UHGV virus genome: UHGV-0245202 | Reading direction: 5' to 3' (one strand) | Length of the DNA: 25,199 bases | Source: a virus | Part shown: positions 1,290 to 19,079 of the stretch, one piece after another | Position numbering within the stretch: position 1 is the first letter of the stretch | Layout: each line of letters begins with the position of its first letter | The notes under the pieces: generated by a model | What the model saw: only the letters and a program-made list of their open reading frames with translations | What the model was told of the DNA's origin: nothing | Database searches by the model: none | Position numbers and translations under genes: made by a program

Positions 1290-2222
1290 ATGGACAACGA
1301 CAAAATTGATCAACACAGCGACGAAATTGAAGTTGAGAGCGAAGAAAAAGAGCGCGGCAAAAAAATAGAAATAGATGAAGACCGACTCCCCTCCCGGGCG
1401 ATGGCAATTCATGAGCATATCCGCCAGGATGGTGAAAAAGAGCTGGAACGCGACGCAATGGCGCTACTGTGGTCAGCCATTGCGGCGGGTCTGTCGATGG
1501 GCGCTTCGCTACTGGCAAAAGGGATATTTCATGTCGAACTGGAAGGAGTGCCAGGCAGCTTCTTACTGGAGAATCTCGGTTATACCTTTGGTTTTATTAT
1601 CGTCATTATGGCCCGCCAGCAATTATTTACCGAAAACACCGTGACTGCGGTACTACCCGTCATGCAAAAACCGACAATGAGCAACGTCGGCTTACTTATG
1701 CGATTATGGGGCGTCGTGCTGCTGGGTAATATTCTCGGGACAGGTATTGCTGCATGGGCATTTGAATATATGCCTATCTTCAATGAAGAAACTCGCGATG
1801 CATTTGTCAAAATCGGCATGGATGTGATGAAGAACACCCCCAGCGAGATGTTTGCCAACGCGATCATTTCCGGCTGGCTGATCGCCACTATGGTTTGGAT
1901 GTTTCCTGCTGCGGGTGCGGCAAAGATTGTGGTGATTATATTGATGACCTGGCTTATTGCACTGGGTGACACCACCCACATCGTTGTCGGTTCTGTTGAA
2001 ATCCTCTATCTGGTGTTTAACGGCACGCTGCACTGGAGCGATTTCATCTGGCCCTTCGCACTACCTACTTTAGCGGGGAACATCTGCGGCGGCACCTTTA
2101 TCTTCGCGTTAATGAGTCATGCACAGATTCGTAACGACATGAGCAACAAGCGTAAAGCAGAAGCACGCCAAAAAGCAGAACGTGCGGAAAACATTAAGAA
2201 AAATGATAAAAACCCAGCATAA
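1290..2222 (+). CDS. yfdC: Inner-membrane protein YfdC, formate/nitrite transporter (FNT) family
   Basis: 310-aa ORF with multiple hydrophobic segments and a charged N-terminal tail; recognised as E. coli YfdC, the gene that lies between mlaA and argW; ATG at 1290 preceded by GAAGAGA. Confidence 0.85.
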   Translation: MDNDKIDQHSDEIEVESEEKERGKKIEIDEDRLPSRAMAIHEHIRQDGEKELERDAMALLWSAIAAGLSMGASLLAKGIFHVELEGVPGSFLLENLGYTFGFIIVIMARQQLFTENTVTAVLPVMQKPTMSNVGLLMRLWGVVLLGNILGTGIAAWAFEYMPIFNEETRDAFVKIGMDVMKNTPSEMFANAIISGWLIATMVWMFPAAGAAKIVVIILMTWLIALGDTTHIVVGSVEILYLVFNGTLHWSDFIWPFALPTLAGNICGGTFIFALMSHAQIRNDMSNKRKAEARQKAERAENIKKNDKNPA

Positions 2223-2257
2223 ATGGCGAGGGTTTAAGCAATCGAGCGGCAGCGTAC

Positions 2258-2286
2258 TTACCCCGCAGTCCATTAGCGGGTATACT
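2258..2286 (+). promoter_or_regulatory. Candidate sigma70 promoter for argW
   Basis: TATACT -10-like hexamer at 2281-2286, 11 nt upstream of the mature tRNA 5' end; weak -35 (TTACCC, 2258-2263) at 17-bp spacing. Pattern-based only. Confidence 0.3.
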
Positions 2287-2297
2287 CATGCCGCATT

Positions 2298-2372
2298 GTC
2301 CTCTTAGTTAAATGGATATAACGAGCCCCTCCTAAGGGCTAATTGCAGGTTCGATTCCTGCAGGGGACACCA
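2298..2372 (+). tRNA. argW: tRNA-Arg, anticodon CCU
   Basis: 75-nt sequence GTCCTCTTAGTTAAATGGATATAACGAGCCCCTCCTAAGGGCTAATTGCAGGTTCGATTCCTGCAGGGGACACCA; 7-bp acceptor stem with one G-U pair, T-loop GGTTCGATTCC, anticodon loop CTCCTAA with CCT at 2331-2333, encoded 3' CCA. Immediately followed by an integrase gene, the classic prophage attachment arrangement. Confidence 0.93.
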
Positions 2373-2467
2373 TTTATCAGTTCGCTCCCATCCGTACCAG
2401 TCCGCAAAATCCCCTGAATATCAAGCCTTCCGTAGATTCACAGTTCGTAATGGTTCGCGTCAGATCG

Positions 2468-2497
2468 TTGACAGCCGCACTCCATGACGGGTAAAAA
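2468..2497 (+). promoter_or_regulatory. Candidate integrase promoter
   Basis: Consensus -35 TTGACA at 2468-2473 and TAAAAA at 2492-2497 (18-bp spacer), about 37 bp upstream of the int ATG at 2534. Pattern-based only. Confidence 0.3.
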
Positions 2498-2533
2498 GTG
2501 GATAAAATAATTTTACCCACCGGATTTTTACCC

Positions 2534-3691
2534 ATGCTCACCGTTAAGCAGATTGAAGCAGCAAAGCCGAAAGAAAAACCATACCGCCTACTCGATGGTA
2601 ATGGCCTGTACCTTTATGTCCCTGTGTCAGGGAAAAAGGTATGGCAGCTTCGCTACAAGATTGACGGTAAGGAGAAAATCCTGACCGTAGGAAAATATCC
2701 GCTAATGACTTTGCAGGAGGCAAGAGATAAAGCATGGACCGCGAGGAAAGACATCTCGGTTGGCATCGATCCGGTAAAAGCGAAAAAGGCTTCGTCTAAC
2801 AACAATTCCTTTAGTGCGATTTACAAGGAATGGTACGAGCACAAGAAGCAAGTCTGGTCAGTAGGCTATGCAACTGAACTTGCAAAAATGTTTGATGACG
2901 ACATTTTACCTATCATCGGCGGCCTTGAAATTCAGGATATTGAGCCGATGCAACTGCTGGAAGTAATCCGCAGATTTGAAGATCGCGGTGCAATGGAGCG
3001 AGCCAACAAAGCCCGCAGAAGATGCGGCGAGGTTTTCCGTTACGCTATTGTCACTGGTAGGGCTAAATATAACCCGGCACCTGACCTTGCTGACGCCATG
3101 AAGGGATACCGCAAGAAAAACTTCCCGTTTCTTCCTGCAGACCAGATCCCGGCATTTAACAAAGCACTGGCAACATTTTCAGGAAGCATCGTATCGCTCA
3201 TTGCGACCAAAGTTTTACGCTACACAGCCCTCAGAACAAAAGAGCTTCGTTCCATGCTATGGAAGAACGTCGATTTTGAAAACAGGATTATCACCATCGA
3301 CGCCAGTGTGATGAAGGGACGCAAAATTCATGTGGTTCCTATGTCAGACCAGGTAGTTGAACTTCTCGCTACGCTAAGCTCAATCACTAAACCAGTGTCA
3401 GAGTTTGTTTTTGCCGGGCGCAACGATAAGAAGAAGCCAATCTGCGAGAACGCGGTATTACTTGTGATCAAACAAATCGGCTATGAGGGTCTGGAAAGCG
3501 GTCACGGATTCAGGCATGAATTCAGCACGATTATGAACGAGAACGAATGGCCTGCTGATGCTATTGAAGTGCAACTGGCACATGCCAACGGCGGATCTGT
3601 GCGCGGGATTTACAACCACGCTCAGTATCTCGATAAGCGCAGAGAAATGATGCAGTGGTGGGCAGACTGGCTTGATGAAAAGGTGGAGTGA
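2534..3691 (+). CDS. intS: Tyrosine site-specific integrase, IntS (CPS-53/KpLE1) type
   Basis: 385-aa product from the first ATG (2534); the ORF track start at 2498 is a GTG-initiated extension. Sequence recognised as E. coli IntS (MLTVKQIEAAKPKEKPYRLLDGNGLYLYVP...), with C-terminal catalytic region HGFRHEF and a conserved Tyr near the C-terminus; adjacent to and co-oriented with argW. Confidence 0.9.
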   Translation: MLTVKQIEAAKPKEKPYRLLDGNGLYLYVPVSGKKVWQLRYKIDGKEKILTVGKYPLMTLQEARDKAWTARKDISVGIDPVKAKKASSNNNSFSAIYKEWYEHKKQVWSVGYATELAKMFDDDILPIIGGLEIQDIEPMQLLEVIRRFEDRGAMERANKARRRCGEVFRYAIVTGRAKYNPAPDLADAMKGYRKKNFPFLPADQIPAFNKALATFSGSIVSLIATKVLRYTALRTKELRSMLWKNVDFENRIITIDASVMKGRKIHVVPMSDQVVELLATLSSITKPVSEFVFAGRNDKKKPICENAVLLVIKQIGYEGLESGHGFRHEFSTIMNENEWPADAIEVQLAHANGGSVRGIYNHAQYLDKRREMMQWWADWLDEKVE

Positions 3692-3844
3692 TCCACCTTA
3701 GCCACTATCGAAGAGCACAAAACCTTGCAATCCAGTACAAAGCTTTGTTTGTCTCAGTTTTGTCTCATCAACCACAGCAAGTCATCGATCGATTGAGACT
3801 TGGATGATAGACTTCATGCCTTTGATTATTAGCTGATAGAAGAA

Positions 3845-4207
3845 ATGTTAAAGCTATTTGCAAAGTACACCTCGATTGGTGTGCTGAACACACTTATACA
3901 CTGGGTAGTTTTTGGTGTATGTATCTATGTCGCGCATACAAACCAAGCTCTTGCAAACTTCGCAGGTTTTGTTGTGGCTGTGAGTTTTAGCTTCTTCGCG
4001 AATGCAAAATTCACATTCAAAGCATCAACTACAACGATGCGCTACATGTTATATGTCGGGTTCATGGGAACACTGAGTGCTACTGTTGGATGGGCTGCTG
4101 ATAGATGTTCACTTCCTCCAATTGTCACTCTTGTTACATTCTCCGCCATCAGCCTGGTGTGCGGTTTCGTCTATTCAAAGTTCATTGTCTTTAGGGATGC
4201 GAAATGA
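3845..4207 (+). CDS. gtrA: GtrA, bactoprenol-linked glucose flippase
   Basis: 120-aa small four-TM protein; recognised as GtrA/YfdG; 4-nt ATGA overlap with the next gene (gtrB ATG 4204, gtrA stop 4205-4207). Confidence 0.9.
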
Positions 4208-5115
4208 AGATATCTCTTGTAGTTCCTGTCTTCAATGAAGAAGAAGCGATACCAATTTTTTATAAAACGGTACGTGAATTCGAAGAGTTGAAGCCATATG
4301 AAGTTGAAATTGTTTTTATAAATGATGGTAGCAAAGACGCTACGGAGTCAATAATTAACGCTTTGGCTGTTTCTGATCCGCTAGTTGTTCCGCTGTCATT
4401 TACACGCAACTTTGGTAAAGAACCAGCATTGTTTGCAGGGTTAGACCATGCAACCGGGGATGCGGTAATCCCAATTGATGTTGACCTGCAAGACCCGATT
4501 GAAGTGATTCCTCATCTTATTGAAAAGTGGCAGGCAGGTGCTGATATGGTGCTTGCTAAACGTTCGGATCGTTCAACCGATGGGAAATTAAAACGAAAAA
4601 CAGCTGAGTGGTTCTACAAACTTCACAATAAAATAAGTAATCCAAAGATCGAGGACAATGTTGGCGACTTTAGACTAATGTCCAGAAATGTTGTTGAGAA
4701 TATTAAACTTCTACCAGAACGAAATCTATTCATGAAAGGAGTTCTAAGCTGGGTTGGTGGAGAAATAAGTATTGTTGAGTATGCCAGAGCGGAACGCATT
4801 GCGGGGACGACTAAATTTAATGGCTGGAAATTATGGAACTTAGCTCTTGAGGGTATAACTGGTTTTTCAACATTTCCTCTACGAATGTGGACATATATAG
4901 GATTATTTGTTGCAACAATATCATTCATGTACGGAGCATGGATGATATTGGATAAAATTTTATTTGGAAACAACGTACCAGGTTATCCATCACTTCTTGT
5001 TTCTATTCTTTTTCTTGGTGGGATTCAATTGATTGGCATTGGAGTCCTAGGTGAATATATAGGAAGAATCTATATTGAAACCAAAAAAAGACCTAGATAC
5101 CTTATAAAAAAATAG
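4204..5115 (+). CDS. gtrB: GtrB, bactoprenol glucosyltransferase (GT2 family)
   Basis: 303-aa product with an N-terminal GT2 domain ([17 protein letters not shown]-x-D region) and two C-terminal TM helices; recognised as GtrB/YfdH. Confidence 0.9.
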
Positions 5116-5122
5116 GATGCAT

Positions 5123-6577
5123 ATGAACTTTTTAATTAGAGAAAGCGAAAAGAAAGCATTTGCTTTATTATTTGCAACCGCATTGCTTTTTATATATCCA
5201 TTAATGCATTATGGTATATATTTTCGAGACGATCTACACAGATCTGTAACTGGATACTATGGATGGAGCGGCCTTGGTAGACCACTCGCAGATATAGTTA
5301 TAAAAGTAGCATCAGCAAGCGGAGATAGACTATTAGATATTTTCCCGTATAACTTAATACTATCTTGCGCCATGCTATCACTAGCATGTATACATATAGC
5401 TAGATTATTACAACATCTAAACATAAAAAAGCCAACGTTTTGTGCCTCATTGTTTATCTTTAATCCATTTTTTCTACAAAATCTAGCTTATAGATTTGAC
5501 TCCACAGGAATGTCTTTAGCACTTCTTCTTTGTGCGCTTTCATACACCTACCAAAATAACAATATTTATATATCATTGGTAATTAAAATTTTACTTGGTG
5601 TCGCAACACTTTCACTGTATCAACCATGTGCAAATCTATTCATTGGGTTGCTATCAATCGAGCTCTCTGCATTATTCATTACTAACAACACAAACAACAA
5701 AAAATTATTTTTAACATTAATCAAAAAAGCTGGAGTATTTTTATCATTCTACTCTATTTACTTTCTAATCGTAGCAAGAATATGGGGTTCAGAAAACAAT
5801 AGATCTGAAATCGTCAAGTTAAATACAGATGGATTAAATCATATTTATAATACATTCCAAAGACTCAATACCTTGCTTGAGTCATTTTTTAATGGTCCAG
5901 TTATTTTTTATTTTATACCACCGGTTATTTTATTATTTATTTTTATTATCCTTACCGTTTACAAAAATAGAAACAACTCGTTGGCAACCAAGATGCTTTT
6001 ATTATTGCTATCATTGAGCTCGGCATATATATCTCTTCTTGGGCCGACATTTATTCTTGTTGATGCGCCCGTATTTCCAAGAACGCTGGTAAGCTTCTCA
6101 ATCCTCTTTGTTTTATTTTCCATGTATATAATTTCACTTTGTGATAAGCTAAAATGCATTGCATTAATACCTGTAGTAACAGTAATAGCATTTAGCTCTC
6201 AATTTGCCAACGCACTGAACACCCAAAGAGAACATGAGAACTTTGTTTTAAATATGGTTGCATATGATTTAATGAATATAAATGGAATACAAAAAATTAA
6301 GACAGTGGGCAAGATAAGATTCAGTAAAAGAGCTGAATTACTCACAAATGATAAGCCTCTAATAAGCCAATCTATAAGCAGGGCTACTGAATTTCTTGCA
6401 ACTTATCAAATGGTTAACAAGGGCTTGAAAGGTGTAAGCGATGGTTATGGCATAGAAAAATCCAATAAGGAAGAGTTGGACTCATTCAAAAGCAATGGTG
6501 TTAAACCATATGTTGATAACAATGAATACTCAATATATGAAAATAATGGCGTTGCAATTGTAGTTTTTAAGGGATAA
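5123..6577 (+). CDS. Serotype-specific O-antigen glucosyltransferase (GtrC-type, third gene of the gtr operon)
   Basis: About 484 aa from the ATG at 5123 (AGGA 5 nt upstream; the alternative in-frame ATG at 5117 overlaps that RBS). Very hydrophobic polytopic N-terminal two-thirds with a soluble C-terminal domain; strongly AT-rich, unlike the flanking DNA; positioned directly after gtrA and gtrB. Specificity cannot be inferred from sequence. Confidence 0.75.
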   Translation: MNFLIRESEKKAFALLFATALLFIYPLMHYGIYFRDDLHRSVTGYYGWSGLGRPLADIVIKVASASGDRLLDIFPYNLILSCAMLSLACIHIARLLQHLNIKKPTFCASLFIFNPFFLQNLAYRFDSTGMSLALLLCALSYTYQNNNIYISLVIKILLGVATLSLYQPCANLFIGLLSIELSALFITNNTNNKKLFLTLIKKAGVFLSFYSIYFLIVARIWGSENNRSEIVKLNTDGLNHIYNTFQRLNTLLESFFNGPVIFYFIPPVILLFIFIILTVYKNRNNSLATKMLLLLLSLSSAYISLLGPTFILVDAPVFPRTLVSFSILFVLFSMYIISLCDKLKCIALIPVVTVIAFSSQFANALNTQREHENFVLNMVAYDLMNINGIQKIKTVGKIRFSKRAELLTNDKPLISQSISRATEFLATYQMVNKGLKGVSDGYGIEKSNKEELDSFKSNGVKPYVDNNEYSIYENNGVAIVVFKG

Positions 6578-6605
6578 TACGCAACTAAAATAGTTCTGCA
6601 TTGCT

Positions 6606-6643
6606 CATTAAGACCAATCAATCACATCAGATTGGTCTTAATG
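6606..6643. terminator. Perfect 14-bp inverted repeat (hairpin) between the convergent gtr type gene and tailspike
   Basis: CATTAAGACCAATC (6606-6619) and GATTGGTCTTAATG (6630-6643) are exact reverse complements with a 10-nt loop, in the 87-bp gap between two convergent stop codons. No clean U-run follows on either strand, so it may be a terminator or RNA-stability/processing hairpin or a protein-binding site. Confidence 0.45.
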
Positions 6644-6664
6644 AAATTACGCCGCGACCAGTTA

Positions 6665-8638
6665 TCACCTCCATTTAAACCGAGGTGAATATTCACCGTT
6701 ATTGAATCTTCCTATACTTACCTGTATTGTCGCCGGAGAATCAGAAAGAACCTCGGTGCTATGCAATGATAGTATAAGTGATGATGATTCTATATCTCTA
6801 TCTATTTCGATCACATAACCATAATCTCGTTCTGGCTCTGTAAAATAAGCTATTGGGTTTCCGTTTGCTGCAATGGTAAATCTTCCACCAACAAATTTAC
6901 CCTTGAACATAACATGTATTTTTATCCGACTAACTCCCTTCGGTAAAACACAACCAGCATTTAATGATGCTGTAGAGTTTATATTGAAATCTTTCCTTAT
7001 CACTGTGTATGGAATTGCATATAAAGCTTCAGCAAAGCTTGATTGAGACTGATACTCTGTCGCAGCAATAGAGCTCCCCCCCATAATTCTAAATCCTCCA
7101 ACACCGGAGAACACACTATTAAAAGCATCCACAGCTTTCGTAAAGTTACCAATACAAACGGGTGTTTCTGCATCATTAATGAATTGTTCCCTTGAATACA
7201 ATGTCACACTGTTTATATATGTACTTTTATAACCACCAATATCATCAGGGCTTAAAAATCCATACCCATTGGAACCATCAGATACGCCATTAAATTCTGT
7301 ATAATAGCTACAAAATTCGTTAGATGATCTTGGAGATGTCTCAATCCATCCAAATCCAAAATTTCTCTCTGACTGAATATTGCTATAAGTACACCCACTA
7401 CTCCGCGTTATAAGGCCTGCGCCACTATAGCGCGTCGCTGAGTCTGGTGATGGGTCAAAATCACCATTGCGACCATTTGTGTGTGTACGTATACGTAAAA
7501 AACTAACAGAATTTACAGCCAAATCATCAGTTTCTCCTTGAGTAGGATAACCAATAACAACTCCGCGCCCATAGTTATCATGTGCAACTATTGTTCCAAA
7601 TGAACAGAACCAAGACTGATAAACTGATATGCCGACGACACGAGCATTTATGGCTGTAATATTGTCGCAATGTGACTCATTTGTAAAATATCTAAAATAA
7701 AATCCATTTGTCGCCTTATTATCACAATCAGAAATTATATTTGTAATTCTTACTGAGCTTACATCTTCAGTTGGTGTAACTCCAATTGGAGAGCGAGAGC
7801 ATCTAATAACAGCCTTTTTAATTGCAACATCCCCAATCCATTTAATGGTTGTAGCAAATCTATTACCTGCTCGCAGAGAATTTCCATATCCTCTCATATC
7901 CAAGCCATTTGGAGGCACAAACTCATCTGTAATTCCAATAACACCAGCTGGAAGGATTAAAGGTAGTTTATTATCAGATGCGAATTTAGCAGCACTGGTT
8001 AACTCATTAATTGAATCTTTTTCTCCATTTAAATTAACCCCCCACCATTTTAATAGAACTTCTCCATTGATATTTCGTTTCCACCGCCTCCCAATTGCGT
8101 CAATAAGTATTGTTCCTCCATTATCTTGAGATGTAGAATCATACTTATCAATTTCAAATATTCCATTTCCACCATCAAATATATTTCGCACACCATATAC
8201 ATAGCATCTATGCATATTCCCGCTATAATTTCTAATATCTTCGTAATTTGCTCCACCTATATATCCCAAACCGAAGCTTTGAGATAATTGAACTTTAAAT
8301 TGATCAGGTTCATACTTCAGCACATTCGGAAAATAAAACTGCTGAGCACCGTATGCATCATAAACAGCCATAGAATGGCCTTGCACAGTTACGAACTTGG
8401 CAATCTGTCCGTTATATACCGGGTAACCAGCAGCGTTAATGATGATTGGTTGCGAAACAGGAACGTGAGAGCCGTCTTCGTTCTCCACATAAACCTGAAT
8501 CTGGTTTTCAGGATTTACAGGGTCAGTGTCAATTTTACCGATATAAATTTTGCCATTGGCTACAGCTTTAAAAGAACGAGCCATAGTGAAGAGTTGAGAA
8601 GGCATGCTTACCACAACATTTGCGGTGATATCTGACAT
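6665..8638 (-). CDS. Tailspike protein (gp9 position); P22-type N-terminal head-binding domain with a divergent receptor-binding domain
   Basis: 657 aa from the ATG at 8636-8638 (GGAG 9 nt upstream); the ORF track start at 8686 adds 16 codons with no RBS. The first ~110 aa ([11 protein letters not shown]...[21 protein letters not shown]...[13 protein letters not shown]...[10 protein letters not shown]) match the P22 gp9 head-binding domain from memory; the remainder does not resemble the P22 endorhamnosidase domain and is AT-rich. Confidence 0.85.
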
Positions 8639-8663
8639 TTCATTGCTCCAGACGAATGATATG

Positions 8664-8686
8664 ATGCAATCACGATGTGATTGCAT
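8664..8686. promoter_or_regulatory. Perfect 23-bp palindrome, candidate operator (Mnt-type) between mnt and the tailspike
   Basis: ATGCAATCAC-GAT-GTGATTGCAT: 10-bp arms that are exact reverse complements around a 3-bp centre, in the 121-bp divergent gap between the tailspike ATG (8638) and the mnt ATG (8760). Confidence 0.4.
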
Positions 8687-8759
8687 ACCGAAATGGTACT
8701 ATTGAGTATTTATCCAGTAGGTTACGATGCCATTCCACCCAACTGGTGAGGCATCACGG

Positions 8760-9020
8760 ATGTACAGCAAATACGACGAGGCGCAGTTTCACTTGAGACT
8801 TCCGCATGAACTCCACGCGAAAATTAAGCAGCGTGCGAAGATGAATAACAGGTCGCTGAACTCAGAGATAATTGCAGCGATTGAAGAATCATTGGATAAA
8901 CAAAGCTCTGCATCAGTTTACATTGACGATGCAGAGCGTATGGCAGAACAACAATCGGATATGGTTAAGAAAATTGTCTTTGATACGCTCAAGAAGCTAT
9001 ATAAAAAAGACAGTAGCTAA
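8760..9020 (+). CDS. mnt: Mnt-like ribbon-helix-helix repressor (immI-type)
   Basis: 86 aa from the ATG at 8760 (GGTGAGG upstream); the ORF track start at 8727 adds 11 codons. N-terminal RHH beta-strand motif (FHLRLPHELHAKIKQRA...GRSLNSEII) and a C-terminal tail DAERMAEQQSDMVKKIVFDTLKKLYKK matching the P22 Mnt tetramerisation helix from memory; located at the P22 immI position and transcribed opposite to the late genes, as P22 mnt is. Confidence 0.8.
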   Translation: MYSKYDEAQFHLRLPHELHAKIKQRAKMNNRSLNSEIIAAIEESLDKQSSASVYIDDAERMAEQQSDMVKKIVFDTLKKLYKKDSS

Positions 9021-9040
9021 CCATCCGTTACGGAGGATTT

Positions 9041-9118
9041 ATGCAAAGAGATATGCTGAATATTGCGTTCTACATATTTGGTTTTTGCACGTTCCTGGTG
9101 TTTGCGAAGCTATTCTGA
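9041..9118 (+). CDS. Putative 25-aa hydrophobic small protein (MQRDMLNIAFYIFGFCTFLVFAKLF); unannotated small ORF
   Basis: ATG at 9041 preceded by GGAGG (9032-9036, 4-nt spacer); 25 codons ending TGA at 9116-9118; a short polar N-terminus followed by a ~20-residue hydrophobic stretch. Lies 21 bp after the mnt stop on the same strand, and its 3' end overlaps the convergent gp16 stop codon (9110-9112). Below the 60-aa cut-off of the ORF track. Could be chance. Confidence 0.25.
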   Translation: MQRDMLNIAFYIFGFCTFLVFAKLF

Positions 9119-11503
9119 CAACGCATCAGACTTGGCACCCTGAGTAAGGGCGTTAATGGCCTTTTGCGCCTGCTGCATGGCTTTCTCAAACGCTGTTGAT
9201 CCGCGTGGGGTGTTTGCCATTCGGAGCATTGCATTTCTGAATGGCTCGCTCTCATAGGCGCGCGTAAGAAGTCCGTAGCTTACCGCTGCGCCAGTTGTCG
9301 CAGGGTTCATTGCTGTCCCATATCCGATAATGAACGGGATGGTTTGCTGCCCTGTTGGTGTTGTTACTGCCGCTTTTGCAGCCTGCTGCGTGGATTGCAG
9401 GTAGTTTTTCAATCCTTTCAGATAAGCGGCTTCCTGACCTTTAAATGTGATGCCAGTCTGGTTTTGCAGGATGTTAAGCTGTCGAAGGAACTGGTCAGGG
9501 GAACCACCTGATTTCTCCATCGCCTTTCCAATGATGCCATTGCGCATTTGCGCCCTGCCAACACGACCAACTGAGTTATACAGCGTCTTAATTTCCGATT
9601 TGTTCTTGCTGAATAGCATGTTGTTGACAACTTCCGGCGTCAGGTCGCCTTTCATGAGAACATTCTTCAGCCTGGTATTCTTTAGTTTCGCCGCTTCGTC
9701 AGCGTAGACGGCATTGGCCTGCTGATATTTACGGAGAGTATCGTTGCCAAGATTCTGACCAATGGCACCATTGATATCGTCGGTCATTGCCTTGTAAACG
9801 CGCTGAATGGCAGCATCGGAACGGTTTGGTAACACTGGTCGCTCCCCCTTCACGTCCATTCTGAACTGGCTGCGCAGATCGCTTAATTGCTTCAAATCCA
9901 GATTTACCGGACCATCAGGACCAGCATTGCGAACAAGCTCATCACGATAGGACTGAAGTTTTGAAATAGTCTCGTTATCAGCAACCTTACCAAGCTTCTG
10001 CAGGTTAGATATTTCTGTATCAATCTGCTGAATTGCTCTTGCAGGCTGAATGTTTATTCCCGCCATAGCATTCTGAACCTGCTCAAGACGGTTCCCTGCA
10101 GCACGACGAATTCCTGATGTTTTCGCTTTAAGGCTGTCAATAACAACAGCTGGATCATACTCACCGAATTTATCAGCAAATCTCTGCACCAACTGGCTTC
10201 TCGCTTCCTGTTGCGTTGCTCTCATTCCGCTTGTGCCAGCCAGGGGGATATTTTCCGCTGTCGTCTGCGCCATTTTTCCGACGCGGGAAATGGGTTGTAA
10301 CAGGTCTGTGGTGTGCAGAGGAACTCCTTCACGTTCTGCAAATCTGATAGCCTGTTGCGCTTCTGGTGCTATCGAACCACGAACACCACGATAAGCAGCG
10401 CCTAATCCACGTCCGGCAGCGTTAATAGCACCGCCAGCCAGCACACCAACGCCTAAATCGGTGGCGAGTGCTTCCGCATCATCTTTCGCACTGTTTGCAG
10501 CAAGTGATCCAACTGCGTTTTCTGCGAGAAGGCGAGTTGCCCCCTGAGCAATTCGACCAGCAAGTGTTGGTGCCTGTGCTGCCGCTCTCTCAACGCCAGC
10601 AGGAGTGAGGTAAGGCAATGCTTCAGCAAATACCCTTCCCTCTGTCGTTTGTGGAGTCAGCGCGCCTTGCTGAAGGCCAAAGTCCTGCTCTAATCCCTGC
10701 GTTGTTACTCGTGGTGCTGGTTGATATGTACCATCGCCAATGCCGAGTTTACCGCCAGCCCAAGCCGCCGCGCTTGTTACAGCATCAGTGAGTTCAGCAG
10801 GTATGTTCGCTACGTTGATTCCTGCCTGTAGTAAGCCTCGCCCGGTTTCAGCAAGTCCATTACCAAGGTCAGACATTATTCCGCCTTGCTGCTGAACAGG
10901 TTTCGGTGCGACAGAACTTACGGGTTGAGGTGGCTGCTGACTGGCTGCCTGCTGCTCAATCTGAGCAAATGGATTATTTGGGTCTGACTGCACGCCTGAT
11001 GCCGATACTTGTTCGGATGACTGTGCTTCCAGTTGTGCAAACGGGTTGTTAGGGTCTTGCTGAGGATGTACCTTTGCAGAGGTGGCGCGCTGTTCGACTG
11101 TTGAGTCTGTCACCGGGTCACCCGCCCATTGAGCAAAGCGATCATCAACGTAACCGCGGCCTTCAGGTCCTGGCGTATATTCACCACGCTTTGCCTTCAT
11201 AACGTTGCCGGGACCGTCGTGATAAGCCTGAAGAGCGTCACGCCAGTTACCAAACTGCTGGTACATCTTTGCCAGATAGCGCGCGCCAGCGTCAGCCTGA
11301 TATTCGGGGTTTTGCATTTGCTCATCGGTATAACCCATATCACGCCATGTCCCAGGCATGACCTGAGTCAATCCTACAGCCCCGGCGGAGCTTACTGCGG
11401 CAGGGTTGTAAGAAGACTCCTTGGCACCCAGTGCAGTCATCAACCCTTCTGGCACACCGTAACGTGCGCCAGCCTGCTCTAACAAATCACGGTAATTAGC
11501 CAT
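9110..11503 (-). CDS. Ejection (DNA-transfer) protein at the gp16 position, with an N-terminal lytic transglycosylase (SLT) domain
   Basis: 797 aa; last gene of the gp7-gp20-gp16 ejection block by position. The N-terminal ~130 aa carry family-1 lytic transglycosylase motifs (GAKESSYNPAAVSSAGAVGLTQVMPGTW ... ALQAYHDGPGNV); this is followed by a Q/P-rich linker with a duplicated DPNNPFAQ(L/I)E motif and a long Ala/Gly-rich C-terminal region. Start codon abuts the upstream stop (TAA at 11504-11506, ATG at 11501-11503). Confidence 0.85.
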   Translation of the reverse strand: MANYRDLLEQAGARYGVPEGLMTALGAKESSYNPAAVSSAGAVGLTQVMPGTWRDMGYTDEQMQNPEYQADAGARYLAKMYQQFGNWRDALQAYHDGPGNVMKAKRGEYTPGPEGRGYVDDRFAQWAGDPVTDSTVEQRATSAKVHPQQDPNNPFAQLEAQSSEQVSASGVQSDPNNPFAQIEQQAASQQPPQPVSSVAPKPVQQQGGIMSDLGNGLAETGRGLLQAGINVANIPAELTDAVTSAAAWAGGKLGIGDGTYQPAPRVTTQGLEQDFGLQQGALTPQTTEGRVFAEALPYLTPAGVERAAAQAPTLAGRIAQGATRLLAENAVGSLAANSAKDDAEALATDLGVGVLAGGAINAAGRGLGAAYRGVRGSIAPEAQQAIRFAEREGVPLHTTDLLQPISRVGKMAQTTAENIPLAGTSGMRATQQEARSQLVQRFADKFGEYDPAVVIDSLKAKTSGIRRAAGNRLEQVQNAMAGINIQPARAIQQIDTEISNLQKLGKVADNETISKLQSYRDELVRNAGPDGPVNLDLKQLSDLRSQFRMDVKGERPVLPNRSDAAIQRVYKAMTDDINGAIGQNLGNDTLRKYQQANAVYADEAAKLKNTRLKNVLMKGDLTPEVVNNMLFSKNKSEIKTLYNSVGRVGRAQMRNGIIGKAMEKSGGSPDQFLRQLNILQNQTGITFKGQEAAYLKGLKNYLQSTQQAAKAAVTTPTGQQTIPFIIGYGTAMNPATTGAAVSYGLLTRAYESEPFRNAMLRMANTPRGSTAFEKAMQQAQKAINALTQGAKSDALSE

Positions 11504-12835
11504 TTACTGCCCCAAAGATGGAAGATATCCGTAGCGATTAATGAAGTCGATTGACAGCTCGGGGTGTTGCTTCAGGTAATCTATAGAAGCCTGAGGCGCT
11601 TCCACTCGCTTGATACCGTTTTGCTGAACGTACTTACCAACCGCCTCATTACGCTTCTGGTTGAGCGTGTTCAGGATGACGCCAGCGTTGCGACGAAAGG
11701 ACTCCTCGCTCTGCGAGTTCTGCAGCGAACCAACAGCCTGGTCGAGCTTTTTGCCCTCGGCATCAGAAAGTGCGCCCATGCCTCGCATGGCCTGAACCGC
11801 TGTCAGGTATGCTTGGGATTTAAAGGTATCAAGTCGTGCCTGAGTGTCTGCAGCCTGTGAGCCTGGAACGTTGGGGATTACTCCACGTAAGCCTGTAATG
11901 CTCTTAAGTGAAGGAGAACTAACGATATCGTTCAGAGTGAACATGCTGGTTGTGAGGGTGTTGATGCCGTCTTTGTAGCCATCATTTAGCGCTTGCTGCT
12001 TCTGCTGCAACTGCTGATTGTTGGCTGCTATGCGGCTCTGTATTTCCTGGCGCTTCAGGTCGTTAGTTTCTGCTGATAGCATCCGGTCAAGGCGCTTATT
12101 TTCGTTGTTAATGCGGTTTGTTTCTGCGTCCAGATTAATGCGCTGCTGACCTAAATTCGCCTGGATATCTTGCCCGCGCATTGTGATTGCCTGATTCCGA
12201 GCGGCGGTTTGCGAATCCAGATCCTGACCGCGCATGGTAACCTGGCGACCCTGCATTTTATCCTGTAGGTCAAAGTATTTTTCGGGTCCGAGACTGTTCA
12301 TCCCCAGGTGATCGACAAATTCGCCGAACTGCCGCGGGTTCTGTTGGTACATCTGAGCGACGTCCTGAGGATTAACGCCAACACGAGCTAACTCACCGGC
12401 GTTGTTTTGCAGCCATGATTGCATTGCTTCTGGAGACGATGACGCAAGGCGTGCGCCAGCCGCTAAGGTGCCGATAGAATTACGCTGGTCTTCATCAATG
12501 AACCCCATGCCTTTACGGACGGATTCAATCTGGTCTGGATATTGAGTAGCCAACTGACGCAAAGCACCGCGATCACCAGACGCATAAGCATTAGCGTACG
12601 CCTGCTGAAATTCTTTCTGCCGCTGAGCCTGCTTTTCCTGCTGAAACACCCCTGCAATACCTGAAAGGCCTTGCAAAGCAGTCAGCCCAACATTGTTAGC
12701 GCCTGAACGCTCAATATCATTGTTCTGCCTGATAAGCTGAAGCGTATTGCCGATGTCATTTACGCTCGGAGCGTTTGAGTTGACGCCGCCGATACCAGCC
12801 AACAATCCGCCGTTTGTTCCTTGCCAAGTAGCCAT
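11504..12835 (-). CDS. Ejection (DNA-transfer) protein at the gp20 position
   Basis: 443 aa, between the gp7-like and gp16-like genes in P22 order; Gln/Asn-rich with coiled-coil-like central repeats typical of Podoviridae internal/ejection proteins. Assigned by synteny and composition; homology not verified. Confidence 0.7.
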   Translation of the reverse strand: MATWQGTNGGLLAGIGGVNSNAPSVNDIGNTLQLIRQNNDIERSGANNVGLTALQGLSGIAGVFQQEKQAQRQKEFQQAYANAYASGDRGALRQLATQYPDQIESVRKGMGFIDEDQRNSIGTLAAGARLASSSPEAMQSWLQNNAGELARVGVNPQDVAQMYQQNPRQFGEFVDHLGMNSLGPEKYFDLQDKMQGRQVTMRGQDLDSQTAARNQAITMRGQDIQANLGQQRINLDAETNRINNENKRLDRMLSAETNDLKRQEIQSRIAANNQQLQQKQQALNDGYKDGINTLTTSMFTLNDIVSSPSLKSITGLRGVIPNVPGSQAADTQARLDTFKSQAYLTAVQAMRGMGALSDAEGKKLDQAVGSLQNSQSEESFRRNAGVILNTLNQKRNEAVGKYVQQNGIKRVEAPQASIDYLKQHPELSIDFINRYGYLPSLGQ

Positions 12836-12844
12836 GATTACCCC

Positions 12845-13537
12845 TTAAAACAACGAGCCAAGCAATCCGATACCAGCACCAATGCCAGCGCCCCAAGGCG
12901 TTGATGTTCCCAAAAGGCTGGCAAGACCTGCACCGGCAATCGCACCGGACGTTCCGCCGCTAATTGCTGTCTGAAGACTTGATGGTTTGTTGGCATTAGC
13001 AGCGGCAAGAGCTGCGCTTTGCTGTGCAATGCTGCTCATGTTGTTGGCGTACGTCTGCCCGGCGTTTGCCTGACCTTGCAGAGCACCAAGCCCAACGTTT
13101 GCCAGATTGTTGTAATTGCTCATCTGGTTTGATAACCAAGACTGACCGAGAGTCGGCGCGATCGTAGCCAGTTGATTGCTTGTGGCTGTCGAACCAAGTC
13201 CTCCCGTAGCCTCCGCAGCAGCAAGACTCTGGTAACGAGCCTGACCTGCAAGGTCTTTATACTGCTGAGAGTTGTAATACTGATTAAGTGCCTGCCCCTG
13301 ACCTTCTAAACTGGAAAGGTTCTGAAGCTGGTTAACATACTGCTCCGCAAGAGGCGTGAACGGAGCAAGGTTTTTCATGATCGTCTGCCACTGCTGATTT
13401 TGCAGGTCTGCGGCATACTTCTGAGCTTCTGCTGCATATTTTGCGCTTTTATCAGAACTGCCACCTTTCCCGCCTTTTTCAGGGCAATAAGGTTCCTCAC
13501 CGCGCAGTTTTCTGCCCAGTTTAAATGCATATAACAT
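12845..13537 (-). CDS. Ejection (DNA-transfer) protein at the gp7 position
   Basis: 230 aa (P22 gp7 is about 229 aa); N-terminus MLYAFKLGRKLRGEEPYCPEKGGKGG and a Gly/Ala-rich hydrophobic C-terminus; position immediately after the gp14-like gene matches P22 order. Confidence 0.75.
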   Translation of the reverse strand: MLYAFKLGRKLRGEEPYCPEKGGKGGSSDKSAKYAAEAQKYAADLQNQQWQTIMKNLAPFTPLAEQYVNQLQNLSSLEGQGQALNQYYNSQQYKDLAGQARYQSLAAAEATGGLGSTATSNQLATIAPTLGQSWLSNQMSNYNNLANVGLGALQGQANAGQTYANNMSSIAQQSAALAAANANKPSSLQTAISGGTSGAIAGAGLASLLGTSTPWGAGIGAGIGLLGSLF

Positions 13538-13539
13538 GG

Positions 13540-13995
13540 CTATCTCCCGTGATTCAGGAAGTCGATTAGTTCTTCGCGTGTGGCGCTGTAAAACGTCACG
13601 TCATCCACGCCTTTGAAGTATTTCTTGATGGTTCCTACACGCTTAAGGCCAATCATTGCGCAGTACATCTGACCGTGGCGGAATTTTCGTGCAGCAAATG
13701 ATGTGACGCACTGAACGGTGGTGTTAGTCAGAATGTATCGCCAGAACGCCAGCCCGATTTCCTTGCTGAATCCACGAACCTCTGGCAGGTACATGGCGTG
13801 GCAATCGAATGTCAGCGGCTGAATCTCCTGATAGTAAACAATGCCGCCGAACTGCCCGTGCACGTTCACCTCAAAGTAACGGCAATCATGTTTATAGTCG
13901 TATCCATCACCGTTGTTGCTCCCGGCAATAATGTCAGGGTGATTTCCGACTGCTTCTATCAGGTCGATGTTTCGCGTTGGTTTGAATGTAATCAT
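13540..13995 (-). CDS. gp14-position protein (ejection/virion-assembly associated), function uncertain
   Basis: 151-aa ORF between the tail needle gene and the gp7-like gene, where P22 encodes gp14; one-nucleotide overlap with the upstream stop. Assignment is by synteny only; I do not recognise the sequence. Confidence 0.5.
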   Translation of the reverse strand: MITFKPTRNIDLIEAVGNHPDIIAGSNNGDGYDYKHDCRYFEVNVHGQFGGIVYYQEIQPLTFDCHAMYLPEVRGFSKEIGLAFWRYILTNTTVQCVTSFAARKFRHGQMYCAMIGLKRVGTIKKYFKGVDDVTFYSATREELIDFLNHGR

Positions 13996-14696
13996 CAGTC
14001 AATCAGCCCATGTAATCTAAGTGCCGTTTCAAGCGCCAGAATACGCTGCCGCGCCTGCTGCAAACCTGTAGCGAGTGCTGAGACTTCGGATTGCGTGTAC
14101 GTAGTGCCGACAGCGTATGACTGGTTAGCGTTGAATGCGCCGAGGAGTGCCGTTCCGGTTGCCGCTGTCCATCCTGTCTGACGAGCACCGATAACCTTGG
14201 TGCCGCCGACTGAATAGGATGTTGTTACGTTGAGGGGGGATGCCAGCGATTGTGTTGCTGTTGCTGTTTTCGATACGTAATCGTCCTGCAATGCAGAAAT
14301 ATTTCCTTCAGCCTCCGTCACTCTACCATCAAGAGCACTGACATCAGCCTGCAAGGTGACTATTTCACCTTCAGCCGTGGTTAGTCTGACATCCAGCGAC
14401 GCGATTGCATTGGTATTTGCAGTAATACGGATTTCATGGTCGTCTACGTCGATGCGGAGCTGACGAATTCTTTCTTCGTGATCGACCAGAATAACATCCT
14501 GCTCATCGTTCCTGACCTGTGCATCATAAGCGCCCTGTCCGGCCTCGTTGGCCTTGTTAGCCACGTTACCAACATCAGTGCCCTGTGCGATAACGTAAAG
14601 CAGATACGACTGCGAGAAGATATTGCGTGGAAGGACTGATGTGTCGAGCCGTGTAGCCTGAATGATTACCGGCACATTGAGATTCGAATCCGCCAT
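13995..14696 (-). CDS. Tail needle protein (gp26)
   Basis: 233 aa from the ATG at 14694-14696 (TAATG overlap with the gp10 stop); the ORF track start at 14798 lies inside gp10. N-terminal and coiled-coil regions ([12 protein letters not shown]...[14 protein letters not shown]...[20 protein letters not shown]...[14 protein letters not shown]...TTAEGEI...[31 protein letters not shown]) match the P22 gp26 trimeric needle from memory, ending ...L.AHGLID. Confidence 0.88.
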
Positions 14697-16114
14697 TACT
14701 CGATCCTTATCTGGCAGCCAGACAGAGTGACAGGTGACTTCGTGATAACGCGCAATTTGAAGCCAATGTTTTTCCTGATGCGCCCTACTTTCTTCCACAA
14801 AACGCGTTTGTCGTAAACGAACGGTTCATTCTGCTCAATCATCTGCTCACGTCCGTAATTGATTCCGTCAGTGGTTGCAGAGAGGAACAGGCGGTCAGCG
14901 TACTGCGCAACGCCAGTTGAAGATTCAACTTCAAGGTCGAAAACTCTGGCGTTATCCGCTTTGAAGAGGGGAGTAAACAGCAGGTGTTCCTGTTGCTTGT
15001 CGTACTGGCTGCTGATATCGAACTGCAATTTGCCGGTAACCGATTCCAGCTTATCGCCGCACGTTATCTGATTTCCTTCGTAAATGAAGTCGATAGCGCG
15101 GTACACATCGTCATACAGGCCTGTTTTCAACACACACCATTGCGGACCATTGGCGCTTGAAGATGCGTCGTACACGAGGACGTGACGCGTAAGATGGATA
15201 ATCAGCAGTTCATGCGCATCAAATCGCAGCGATTCCATCACACCATCAGCCAGTTCATCAGCAGTGTAGGAGCGTAGTATTTTCTCAATGCTCGCGCTGG
15301 CGATTGGTGATACCTGACCGGAGCCGATGATATACACAGACGGCGCACCTGTTGCCGGATTGCTGATGAACGCATACGAGTCAGCAAACGGCGTTTTGCA
15401 GTAGGTTCCGGCAATGCCTTTCTGCACCATCAGCGATGGCTGGGCGACATACAAAGCAGCACCAACGGTGGTTGCACCAGTCAGGGAAAAATACTCAATC
15501 GTCGATGAACCAAAGCAGACGATGAAGTCTCGCCATGTTCCGATTCCGATGATGCCGTCAGGCTGCGACTCGGCACGATATTGTGCGCTGTAGCGGTCAG
15601 GATGTGATTCGTCTTCAAGGTCAGTGATAAACCATGAATCAGTGCCGTCTTTTGACCACGCATAACGCCCACGCAAGCGCGTAATGTCGCGAACTGAACC
15701 TAACTCATACTGAGTGAATCCACTGTCTGTAGGCCAGTTTGAGACGGTTTTAACCGTGCCATCATAGCGATACTCGATCAGTTGGCCATTAACGCCTACC
15801 GCCTGTGATGTTCGACCATGCGCCATTGATACGCGACCACTTCCGGCAACATCACCGACTTCACTTTCGCCTTTGTAGAGCTTCCCACCACACACGCGAT
15901 AAACAGCACTCTGCGCCATGTTGTACTCGACGCCGCGCGATATACCGTTCACATTAGAACGTTTGGCAATGCCCGGGAATGAGCGAAGATATCCGCTGCT
16001 GTTGAGGATTTCTTTGGGTGTAGCCAGCATATTCACTGGCAGATAGTCGATATAGTCGGCGCTTCGAAAGTCTTTACCGACACCTTTCATAAGCGGAAGT
16101 TGCTGAATCGGCAT
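14696..16114 (-). CDS. Tail hub protein (gp10)
   Basis: 472 aa, the same length as P22 gp10, at the syntenic position between gp4 and gp26; translationally coupled to neighbours. Confidence 0.85.
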
Positions 16115-16614
16115 TATTCGCTCCCGTTATCGCAAGGTTTCTTTCGGTGGAAGTAATTACAACCGTTCCACTTCGCCAACTGGTTACCGCTACCAACAGG
16201 CATACGGTTAGGATAACCGGACTTACATTTAGCGGCTTTTGCTCTATCCATTGCAGACAGTTTGACGAGTCGCTCTTTCCCGTATCTGGCAGTGGTTATA
16301 AGTTTTGCAGGCGCTTCCAGCGCATAATCCGGTGCAATGCGGCAGGCAAGGTTGAAAATGACAGCATTGATAGCGTTATTTGATAAACCGTGCTCATCGC
16401 CCGGATCTGGAGAGACATCTGCATCAGCGAAAATGTAGCCAACGTTGATACCAGGTGACACATCACCGCCAAGCCATTCAGCCATCATCATTTCAAGGTC
16501 GTTGACGCCGTCTTCCATAGACTGCGGTTCGACATCGGTTAACGTGGCATTTGATGCCACACCGAGCTTACGTAATGCCGCAAGAACTAAATCACCCTTC
16601 GTTGTCAGGTTCAT
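16114..16614 (-). CDS. Head completion / tail adaptor protein (gp4)
   Basis: 166 aa from the ATG at 16612-16614; matches P22 gp4 from memory ([37 protein letters not shown] ... [23 protein letters not shown] ... YP.RMP.GSGN). The ORF track start at 16689 adds 25 codons ([11 protein letters not shown]...) that overlap the upstream small ORF in another frame. Confidence 0.85.
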
Positions 16615-16828
16615 CTGCTGCCGCCTTAGGTTTTCGACCAGGCTTTTTACGCTGTTTTTCTTCTGGCTCTGGCTCTGGCTCTGCAACATCCTTCAAAAGG
16701 TCATCAGGATGTGAAAACCAGCCAGCATCCAGATATTCCTGAAGCTCTTCGGCTTTCACGATTTCAAAGTCGTAGCCAATGCCTTTCCACTTCTTCATGT
16801 CGCCATGACGAAAGATCATGTGTGTCAT
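16592..16828 (-). CDS. Small hypothetical protein between coat and gp4, with a low-complexity acidic/basic C-terminus
   Basis: 78 aa from the ATG at 16826-16828, which has a good SD (TGGAGA, 5-nt spacer); the ORF track start at 16876 is a GTG overlapping the coat stop. C-terminal region [30 protein letters not shown]; the 3' end overlaps the gp4 start by 23 nt. Function unknown. Confidence 0.45.
16663..16683. repeat. Hexanucleotide tandem repeat (CTGGCT)x3.5
   Basis: ctggctctggctctggctctg at 16663-16683; encodes EPEPEPE in the small-ORF frame and SQSQSQ in the non-homologous upstream extension of the gp4 frame. Confidence 0.7.
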
Positions 16829-16872
16829 GCTTGTCTCCAGATAAAAACGGGAGCCGAAGCTCCCTCTGGTTA

Positions 16873-18168
16873 TCACGCGGTCTGGTTAGGCAGACCAACA
16901 CCAATTGCCTCTGGCCGTACAGCACATGCTGAATACCACACAGCAATACGGCACTTACCAGACAGAGTATTGATATCACCCTGCGTTGCGAAGATGCCGT
17001 TAACACCAATACCAGGAATGCTGAAGGAAGACGTTTTCATGCCAGCAAACAGTTCATGGGTTACCGGAATCGGCTGAGACAGCAGGCGGATTGAGTCATC
17101 AGCCCAGAACACGTTAGCGGTGGTTGTTGCCACGTTCAGAACGTTTACCGGAGTGCTATCAGCAAGAGAGGTGTTTACGTTAGCGTAAGCCTTCTCTTCT
17201 TTTGTCAGTGACGCGTCATCCAGCGCAATCGGCTTCGGCGTGATTTCGATGTGAGTACCATCGATCACACGGGTGATTGAGAAAGTCGCATCATCAGTCA
17301 GCACGTTCTTCGCCATCTGAGACAGGAATTTCACACCAGTGAAGCTGATTTTGTCGCCGCGCTTAAATCCGGTGGTGGAGGATACGGTCACCGTTGCAAC
17401 ACGGTTATCGACGTTCTCTTTGTTACCATCGGTATCAAGGGTGTATGCCTGCGGCTTAAACTTCTGCGCACCAGAAACAGTTACACCAGTAGCGGTTGAC
17501 TTGGTAACTGCCGGAAGTTTCGGTGAGCGAAGAATTTCATCAAAGCCAGCAATCTGACGCTGAATAGTACCGTTGCGATACGCTTCTTCAGGAACGCGCC
17601 CAAAGATGTCACCATCTACCAGGTTGCGGCCTGCTTTGCGGTAATCGTCAGGGTTCAGGAAGTAACTGATGCCCATATCGCGGTTTAGCTCACGGGAGAA
17701 CATCAGGCGCTCTGCATCAGACACAAAATCCCAGCCAGACAGGCCAGTAGATGGACCAATTGCGCGGGTATCGTGAACAACAAGCGAGCCCATTTCAGTT
17801 GCCTGTTTGGCAATCGCTGACTCAATGTTATTCGCCAGTTTTTTGGCGGATGCCTGGATGCGGCGACGGTAAGAACGCTCATCACGCAGGTCATCTGCAC
17901 GAAGCTCGAAGAAATCGTTATCCGGATCGCCCATGTTGCATTTCACGGAGAGTTCCAGAATCCCGGTTGCGTTGCCAGTTAAATCCCAGCCAGTCTGGGT
18001 TGGCGCTTCCTGCTCAACAGGCATCCACACGGTGTTGCTTGAACGCTGCATGGATTCTGCCGGAGGGGTGTATTTTGTCACTTTGGACGCCATTGGCGTC
18101 AGGTTCTGGACGGTTTCGATGATTTCATCCAGAGCATACGTGACCAGTTGACCTTCATTTAATGCCAT
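16873..18168 (-). CDS. Major capsid (coat) protein, gp5
   Basis: 431 aa; strong full-length match to P22 coat protein from memory (MALNEGQ.VT.A.DEIIET...[34 protein letters not shown] ... GVGLP.QTA at the C-terminus); TAATG overlap with the scaffold stop at 18168. Confidence 0.95.
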
Positions 18169-19079
18169 TATCGAATTCCTTTATTCAGTTGCGCCTTGAG
18201 CTTGCGGTATGTCTCTACATCCCCTTTGTTTGCTGCCGCTTCCATCTGCTTTTCAATCGCAGAGATATTTGCAGCAACAGCGTGTCCCTGAATGGGTTCA
18301 TCAGGTAACGGGGCTTCTGAAACAGGCTTGGCTCGAGGCTTGAGAGTTAAACGTTCTGACAGTCGAGTGAGTTCAATCAGCGCGGATTGCCCGTCCATCG
18401 CCAGCAACTGGCGTGTTTTCTCAGGATTAGCACCAAGGTGATACATGAGAGCAGCGGATTTCTCCGGGAAGAGGCGCATGATGTCGGCACCGACTGCTGG
18501 CGGCACCAGTTGCATGAATGCATCCTCTTTCTCCTGATAGTCAGGGATATTGAGCTTTTCCGCTGCGTCGTAGTGCTTACGGGCTGCCTCGACGTATTGC
18601 GCTGATTGCTGGGTGAACTCCTGAGTTTTGCGACCCTGCTCGGCGACAGCCTGGCTTCGTGCGTCCATAGCCTTGATCTGCCATTCACTGTTTGCCTGCT
18701 GGAAGGCAGCCAGTGCGCGGCTCTGGTCATAGTCGTACTTAGCCAGTGCATCTTCGGAAAGATAATCGTTAGGGTCTGGTTGTTTTGGTAACTCAGGGTT
18801 CACCCGCAGGTGCTCCGGCAACTCTCCACGCTTAACTGCTTCCATCTGCTGCTCAAGCTCACGCTGGCGTTTGCGTTCGATGCGGCGACGGGCAAATTCA
18901 GCATTAGTTGCCGGGTCTTGTTTTGGTTTCTCATCGTCTTTCAGGACAATCTCGAAGCCTTCTTCCTGACCTGCGTTGTCGTTGGCATTATCGACAACTA
19001 AGCCATCAGCAGATGCCGCTGCATGATTGCCGGGCAGGGTTAATTCTTCAGAAGCCTGAATGTCGGTGGTTTGGTCCAT
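18168..19079 (-). CDS. Scaffolding protein, gp8
   Basis: 303 aa, the same length as P22 gp8; strong match from memory (…[28 protein letters not shown]...[26 protein letters not shown] ... [16 protein letters not shown] ... [12 protein letters not shown]); start preceded by GAGAGAG. Confidence 0.95.

Follow-up and report, generated by a model that had tools for sequence, protein, structure and literature searches.

The tailspikes of the phages P22, Sf6 and HK620 share one plan, a head-binding domain followed by a beta-helix and a C-terminal domain, and their known targets are those of Salmonella O:4,12 (P22), Shigella Y (Sf6) and Escherichia coli O18A1 (HK620). Here we describe a tailspike of the same plan and genome position, encoded at 6665–8638 (minus strand) of UHGV virus genome UHGV-0245202; the whole 25,199-nucleotide stretch analysed is called the window below, and it contains a prophage of P22-like (IME10-like) type inserted at argW in an E. 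coli chromosome. The spike resembles Sf6 gp14, P22 gp9 and HK620 gp9 in its head-binding domain (~92% identical to that of Sf6 over residues 1–114) and hinge, but it has a beta-helix of a different family, without sequence likeness to theirs past residue ~125, and a different predicted target, the O81 O-antigen. We consider it probable that this is a functional spike that binds and likely hydrolyses O81, and that specificity and immunity are exchanged together as a cassette comprising the receptor-binding part and the neighbouring glucosyltransferase gene gtrC.

The equine P22-like coliphage Hf4s also combines an O-antigen-specific tailspike with a gtrABC seroconversion cluster that blocks re-adsorption to lysogens (bioRxiv 10.1101/2021.06.09.447823), although Hf4s targets an O22-like antigen, and the effect on adsorption, experimental in Hf4s, is predicted here. 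The O81 association of a tailspike cluster has already been noticed computationally: in the SpikeHunter deep-learning survey, a preprint, O81 is spread over several clades that are strictly tracked by the prophage tailspike cluster cl60_897 (PMC10370184). Our independent genome count agrees with that survey, while the anatomy, the breakpoints and the link to gtrC come from the present analysis. The only experimentally O81-assigned phage protein that we found is LtfB, the lateral tail fibre of the T5-like phages DT57C and DT571/2, assigned to an O81-type O-antigen (PMC4728585); it is a siphovirus fibre adhesin, not a P22-type spike, and is likened to ours by description only.

Head-binding domain and hinge

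The mechanical open reading frame spans 6665–8686 (minus strand), opening with an upstream ATG at 8686; counted from the P22-type start MSDITANVV at 8638, the protein has 657 amino acids (plus stop), which is also the length annotated by RefSeq in E. coli no107, whose prophage is 98.6% identical to that of the window. Residues 1–114 (8297–8638, minus strand) form a P22/Sf6-type head-binding domain: Pfam Head_binding (PF09008) matches residues 1–113 over profile positions 1–113 of 113 (E = 1.2e–66), and the N-terminal domain aligns to the solved structures of Sf6 gp14 (7sg7) over residues 1–120 (E = 7e–65) and of P22 gp9 over residues 1–123. Past residue ~125 no similarity to P22, Sf6 or HK620 was found in searches of the PDB and of a phage collection; likeness to the beta-helix of P22 gp9 (residues ~125–666) is absent, P22 chains matching query residues 1–123 only. 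A first-pass annotation, made from the sequence alone, had assigned about the first 110 residues to the P22 gp9 head-binding domain, held the remaining ~550 to be unlike the P22 endorhamnosidase, and placed the break of a chimera near KYEPDQF, at the known hinge. These readings stand: in blastn comparison, homology to three other argW prophages is lost at the hinge, with the edge of similarity at 8291–8301, i.e. codons 114–116. The spike is a typical P22-family chimera and an ordinary example of host change in such phages, and our findings leave current understanding of P22-like phages unchanged.

Exchange of gtrC together with the receptor-binding part

The three argW P22-like prophages compared by blastn (L006, L007 and L008) carry different spikes. 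Homology to them is lost at 5098–5111, in the last codons of gtrB, and returns at 8291–8301 with 97% nucleotide identity, which delimits a variable specificity cassette (5112–8290) of gtrC, a hairpin and tailspike residues ~117–657 between two conserved arms (left, the end of gtrB; right, the head-binding domain). The exchange of a receptor-binding module at the hinge, as proposed in the first pass, is therefore borne out at its hinge edge, but the exchanged unit is larger, since it adds gtrC, and is more finely mosaic (below).

The left half of the cassette, gtrC (5117–6577, plus strand, 486 amino acids), encodes a serotype-specific GtrC-type O-antigen glucosyltransferase of the GtrII family (Pfam Glucos_trans_II, E = 1.7e–28; PHROG 4829, GtrC-like, E = 9e–65). 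It is replaced between argW prophages while gtrA and gtrB stay conserved, the usual pattern of prophage Gtr systems, in which conserved gtrA and gtrB precede a serotype-specific polytopic GtrC. The entire region 2200–9100 is present at ~98% identity in 7 complete genomes, so that gtrC and the receptor-binding part are co-inherited; in thousands of other genomes the match is limited to int, gtrA, gtrB and the head-binding/mnt side. On the P22-like contig L012, a spike 67% identical to that of the window lies beside a gtrC 50% identical to the window gtrC, as against only 25% for the gtrC of an unrelated cassette, which suggests from sequence comparison that gtrC and the receptor-binding part diverge together. 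As both lie in one cassette between conserved arms, homologous recombination would swap attack specificity and immunity together, and the locus offers a clean natural example of such joint exchange.

Between the convergent gtrC and tailspike genes, in a gap of 87 bp, lies a perfect 14-bp inverted repeat with a 10-nucleotide loop (6607–6644, read directly); RNAfold gives –24 kcal/mol for this intergenic region. Every alternative cassette has its own, different strong hairpin at this position, and the hairpin is probably a bidirectional transcription stop. A terminator scan of 6400–9200 missed it because it lacks a T-run.

Four genomes carry only remnants of the module (HZ13, ECCHD184, SWYHX138.261ft and SWYHX138.33gt; hits H37–H40). 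In their decayed prophages int and gtrABC are kept, and of the tailspike receptor-binding region only the 3′ 55–99% is left, a pattern suggesting, by analogy with K-12 CPS-53, that the gtr operon is retained after loss of the phage.

Association with the O81 O-antigen

The receptor-binding DNA is present in 10 of the 5426 complete E. coli genomes (six full-length copies and the four 3′ remnants), and the O81 wzx–wzy segment in 11 of them. The two occur together in nine genomes (Fisher P = 5e–26, uncorrected for shared ancestry). In carrier LR-03 the O-antigen locus is annotated as O81 (wzx, wzy), with a CDP-glycerol glycerophosphotransferase and a cytidylyltransferase. The carriers span several continents, with human, pig, chicken and horse as sources, and their prophage architectures differ. 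This genome association and the published O81-tracking tailspike cluster replace the earlier statement that the specificity was unassigned: judged by co-occurrence, the receptor-binding part almost certainly targets the O81 O-antigen. We regard the spike as a concrete candidate for an O81-specific depolymerase, and such a predicted enzyme could serve serotyping, phage host-range engineering and enzymatic O-antigen removal.

The tenth carrier, FHI_NMBU_03 (NZ_CP019455.1; L004, L005), was weighed as a non-O81 counter-example and rejected. Its record has no his, gnd or O-antigen genes within its first and last 30 kb, and the record ends join yeeN directly to wzxC, with an IS1397 (insertion sequence) fragment at the junction. 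Such a junction may reflect an error in closing the assembly, or else a deletion mediated by the insertion sequence, in which case the strain would be rough and His-negative.

Among O81 genomes without the module, KCJ3K291 was looked at and PapRG-04-4 left out. No tailspike or gtr gene is annotated at argW in KCJ3K291, and therefore no rival spike occupies that site. Its argW (L018) holds a different integrative element, with an integrase, a toprim-domain protein, a P2-family capsid gene and an ogr-like gene; it is followed by a degraded intS element that has neither gtr nor spike genes.

According to the title of PMID 29738687, as cited in PMC7685785, O-antigen glucosylation is the only difference between O81 and the horse isolate HS3-104; this strain could not be linked to the window cassette.

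Fold and conserved residues of the receptor-binding part

An AlphaFold2 monomer model of residues 115–657, built with 23 homologues, has a predicted local distance difference test score (pLDDT) of 87.7 and a predicted template modelling score (pTM) of 0.83, and shows a small N-subdomain with its capping helix, then short strands stacked into a long ladder, and a C-terminal beta-sandwich. Its best Foldseek matches are depolymerase tailspikes, namely Klebsiella K2 Depo32, DpK2, AM24, CBA120 TSP2/4 and WceF (E = 1e–14 to 1e–8). The first pass had proposed a depolymerase module and suggested looking for a right-handed beta-helix, and in the predicted model the receptor-binding part does have the depolymerase right-handed beta-helix (pectin-lyase-like) fold. 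The likeness is one of fold: the spike is only 8–16% identical in sequence to Depo32 (7vz3), DpK2 (7lzj) and CBA120 TSP2 (5w6p), which also differ from it in N-terminal adaptors, hosts and substrates.

Three parts can be distinguished in the model, all encoded on the minus strand. The N-subdomain and capping helix (residues 115–225, 7964–8296) stand ahead of the beta-helix and are of a low-identity kind common to many unrelated spikes; phmmer matches here are to the AM24 spike (5w5p, residues 131–215) and WceF (6tgf), and the PHROG tail-fibre matches are confined to residues 115–225. The right-handed parallel beta-helix (residues 226–535, 7034–7963) is the presumed catalytic body. It is followed by a C-terminal beta-sandwich domain (residues 536–657, 6668–7033; model strands 428–530 in fragment numbering). 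In the 23 relatives, which reach down to 26% identity, the acidic residues E239, D304 and E369 are invariant, and D238, next to E239, is near-invariant; the three invariant residues sit within or at the start of the helix. These positions (E239 with D238, D304 and E369) are candidate catalytic residues, on grounds of conservation, and unproven.

Relatives and mosaicism of the spike

The window protein is 99% identical to a database cluster of 223 sequences (P0001), and all its close relatives are located in enterobacterial phage backbones. No close characterised relative emerged: PDB searches matched the head-binding domain and N-subdomain only, whether the query was the protein itself or a profile of 23 sequences, and a tblastn search of the phage collection (50,697 phage records) returned nothing above 39.5% identity among candidates for such a relative. 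That best match, the tailspike of Acinetobacter phage 3073b-K32 (OQ427162; 39.5% identity over 354 amino acids), is the closest named relative of the helix and a K32 depolymerase by annotation only, and its relatives sit in myovirus-type tails. Near-identity to a characterised tailspike, which would have refuted the first pass, is absent. We asked whether the 3073b-K32 tailspike is the characterised K32 enzyme APK32_gp46, and rejected this, as the two are unrelated, and APK32_gp46 is likewise unrelated to the window spike; no mechanism can therefore be transferred from APK32_gp46. A literature search on ‘3073b’ found nothing relevant.

Relatives show where the spike is jointed. Codons 226–657 share 98.5% nucleotide identity with the spike gene of L002, a siphophage contig from metagenomic data, and there is no DNA similarity upstream of that point. 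The backbone of L002 is Kagunavirus-like, with identities of 91% to Escherichia phage 26 and of 89.5% to Raoultella phage RP180; a temperate podophage and a lytic siphophage thus have this piece of the spike in almost the same form. Residues 115–225 are only 39% identical to relative P0002, against 94–100% for the rest. Relative P0003 is 93–97% identical through the helix and 39% in the C-terminal domain, which is thus separately exchangeable. The joints, at about codons 115, 226 and 535, divide the spike into four exchangeable pieces, an assembly of which it is a clean natural example.

Relatives of the module are fused to differing virion adaptors or to none: those with a P22 head-binding domain occur in P22-like contigs, again with gtrABC adjoining, those with a Tail_spike_N domain in siphophages, and adaptor-less ones in T7-like genomes, as an additional spike at the right end, while the relatives in Acinetobacter phages (36–40% identity) belong to myovirus-type baseplates.

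Two T7-like metagenomic contigs have further features of their own. In L009 the primary tail fibre (1–1241) combines Phage_T7_tail, YadA_stalk and a GDPD glycerophosphodiesterase domain, and a second, adaptor-less spike (6001–7641) is a 47%-identical homologue of the window helix; since the O81 cluster codes for glycerol-phosphate transfer, the pairing is suggestive. In L011 (6001–9416) the genome ends in two adjacent adaptor-less beta-helix spike genes, of which one is a homologue of the window module at 60% identity.

Base composition and origin

The guanine-plus-cytosine (GC) fraction is 0.370 in the receptor-binding part, 0.322 in gtrC, 0.421 in the head-binding part, 0.429 in mnt and 0.52 in the injection genes; it is 0.50–0.52 in the remaining prophage and 0.48–0.52 in the host flank and virion genes. 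The receptor-binding DNA is indeed AT-rich, as had been noted from the sequence, but the head-binding DNA (8297–8638) is not of near-host composition as claimed alongside it: at 0.421 it is intermediate. Change points were located by likelihood search and compared with shuffled sequence (300 permutations). The strongest lie at ~4585, inside gtrB, and at ~9087, between mnt and the injection genes, and neither was equalled in any shuffle (0/300 each). At the hinge, where the first pass had expected a discontinuity, the outcome depends on the measure: GC at third codon positions (GC3) drops clearly, from 0.386 in the head-binding part to 0.228 in the receptor-binding part (Fisher P = 9e–4), whereas the step in total GC is small (best point 8339, 0.369 to 0.427) and is equalled by 36 or 11 of the 300 shuffles, depending on the range tested.

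The first pass took the AT-rich module for an import from a lower-GC donor, which in its sharper form would be a recent transfer from a low-GC genus such as Acinetobacter. Favourable to this are the contrast of 0.37 with 0.50–0.52 for the virion genes, the GC3 of 0.23, and the presence of distant relatives (36–40% identity) in Acinetobacter phages. We find such an import improbable, however. In the three unrelated alternative cassettes found at this locus, GC is 0.37–0.39 in the receptor-binding part and 0.30 in gtrC, and the E. coli O81 O-antigen cluster itself is at 0.30; as these are equally or more AT-rich, no particular low-GC donor is indicated, and low GC is a shared trait of O-antigen-related genes in E. 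coli, not a donor fingerprint. Moreover, at 36–40% identity the Acinetobacter proteins are too distant to reflect a recent transfer, the close relatives (65–99%) lie in enterobacterial backbones (P22-like, Kagunavirus-like and T7-like), and the closest copies are in E. coli phages. A scan of species-representative genomes returned a single E. coli locus and is uninformative on the donor.

Proposed function and alternatives

The steps of head mounting and of glycan binding and cleavage follow what is established for P22, Sf6 and HK620. The Sf6-type head-binding domain would dock a predicted trimeric spike onto the gp4/gp10 tail hub, and the N-subdomain, beta-helix and C-terminal beta-sandwich would bind the O81 O-antigen of the host lipopolysaccharide. 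Most likely the spike would then hydrolyse O81 chains endolytically, which would open a path for the virion to the outer membrane. In the lysogen, GtrC with GtrA and GtrB would glucosylate the same O-antigen, such that sister phages no longer adsorb, a model of lysogen protection taken from a review (PMC7685785) and from the experimental result for the related phage Hf4s. The module of helix and C-terminal domain appears to have been exchanged recently with a lytic Kagunavirus-like siphophage.

Several points weigh against this account. The cluster cl60_897 may be a protein other than that of the window. The O81 association rests on nine genomes, a number of which are probably clonal (in three the chromosomal coordinates nearly coincide), and O81 is read from other carriers, the O-antigen locus of the window's own genome not being visible. 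No spike relative above 40% identity has enzymatic or adsorption characterisation; the catalytic candidates come from conservation, and their placement in the substrate groove would be a prediction. Finally, E. coli KSC207 (L013, NZ_CP019558.1 7806–27441) has torI, intS and a tailspike of 98.3% nucleotide identity with no gtr genes between integrase and spike, and coupling to gtrC is therefore not obligatory.

KSC207 has a second intS match ~30 kb away, an arrangement suggestive of P22-like prophages in tandem at argW, of which one has an O81-type spike and no gtr operon.

A bolder extension is conceivable, if rather unlikely: the helix module (precomputed Pfam label PF27114, Phage_tail_beta) could represent an unexplored depolymerase family specialised for glycerol-phosphate-decorated O-antigens such as O81, with an activity that depends on or is gated by that substituent and is blocked by the GtrC of the cassette. 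Under this proposal the module would have moved near-unchanged (98.5% nucleotide identity) between temperate P22-like and lytic Kagunavirus-like phages, and the T7-like spike and glycerophosphodiesterase fibre would be a two-enzyme solution for the same kind of glycan.

The glycan might also be depolymerised by chemistry other than hydrolysis, either by a beta-elimination lyase or by an enzyme acting on the glycerol-phosphate substituent implied by the O81 cluster. We doubt this. Lyases require uronic acids, and the annotated O81 cluster lists no gene for uronic-acid synthesis, which is why we favour hydrolysis over beta-elimination; a phosphodiesterase fold is absent; and the best whole-protein Foldseek matches are hydrolase-type spikes, with conserved Asp and Glu residues that suit a hydrolase.

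That the spike instead attacks a capsule or other exopolysaccharide, the O81 link being a by-product of clonal descent, seems very unlikely, even though the closest relative with a name carries the annotation of an Acinetobacter K32 capsular depolymerase, the structural neighbours of the spike are mostly capsule depolymerases, and several carriers may share a clonal origin. P22-like spikes beside gtr operons classically use O-antigen, and 9 of the 10 carriers are O81 where only 11 of the 5426 genomes are O81 overall. Clonal descent also fits poorly with the range of host animals, continents and prophage architectures among the carriers, and with the spread of O81 over multiple clades that the spike cluster follows (PMC10370184).

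Nor do we give much credence to a spike that only binds, its catalysis lost, or to a relic gene in a defective prophage: the catalytic residues are unproven and 4 of the 10 genomes hold just 3′ gene fragments in decayed prophages that keep gtr genes, but the window gene is full length, lies within a complete P22-type virion module, is 99% identical to the 223-sequence cluster and retains the acidic residues conserved across the family.

Layout of the prophage

The host flank runs mlaA, yfdC and then tRNA-Arg(CCT) argW (2298–2372, plus strand), the attachment site, which with the integrase gene intS (IntS; 2498–3691, plus strand) marks the left prophage end. The O-antigen glucosylation operon gtrA–gtrB–gtrC (3845–6577) follows; its conserved part is gtrA (3845–4207, plus strand; Pfam GtrA_DPMS_TM) and gtrB (4204–5115, plus strand; Pfam Glycos_transf_2), which are 86–92% identical in nucleotide sequence to those of other argW prophages. 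Then come the tailspike gene, convergent with gtrC, and a gene for an Mnt-type repressor (8727–9020, plus strand; Pfam Repressor_Mnt and Arc), divergent from the tailspike gene. The injection, tail, head and packaging genes all lie on the minus strand beyond mnt. This virion module (9100–25199) is 96.7% identical in nucleotide sequence to phage IME10, and according to the RefSeq annotation of the 98.6%-identical no107 prophage a complete P22-type set (gp4, gp10, gp26 and gp7/20/16) adjoins the tailspike, beside immI.

A promoter consensus scan of 6400–9200 gave nothing better than chance. Neither arc nor ant lies between the Mnt-type repressor gene and the tailspike gene, and the 88-bp gap that separates them (8639–9020 region) may contain a Pant-like, Mnt-controlled promoter reading into the spike gene.

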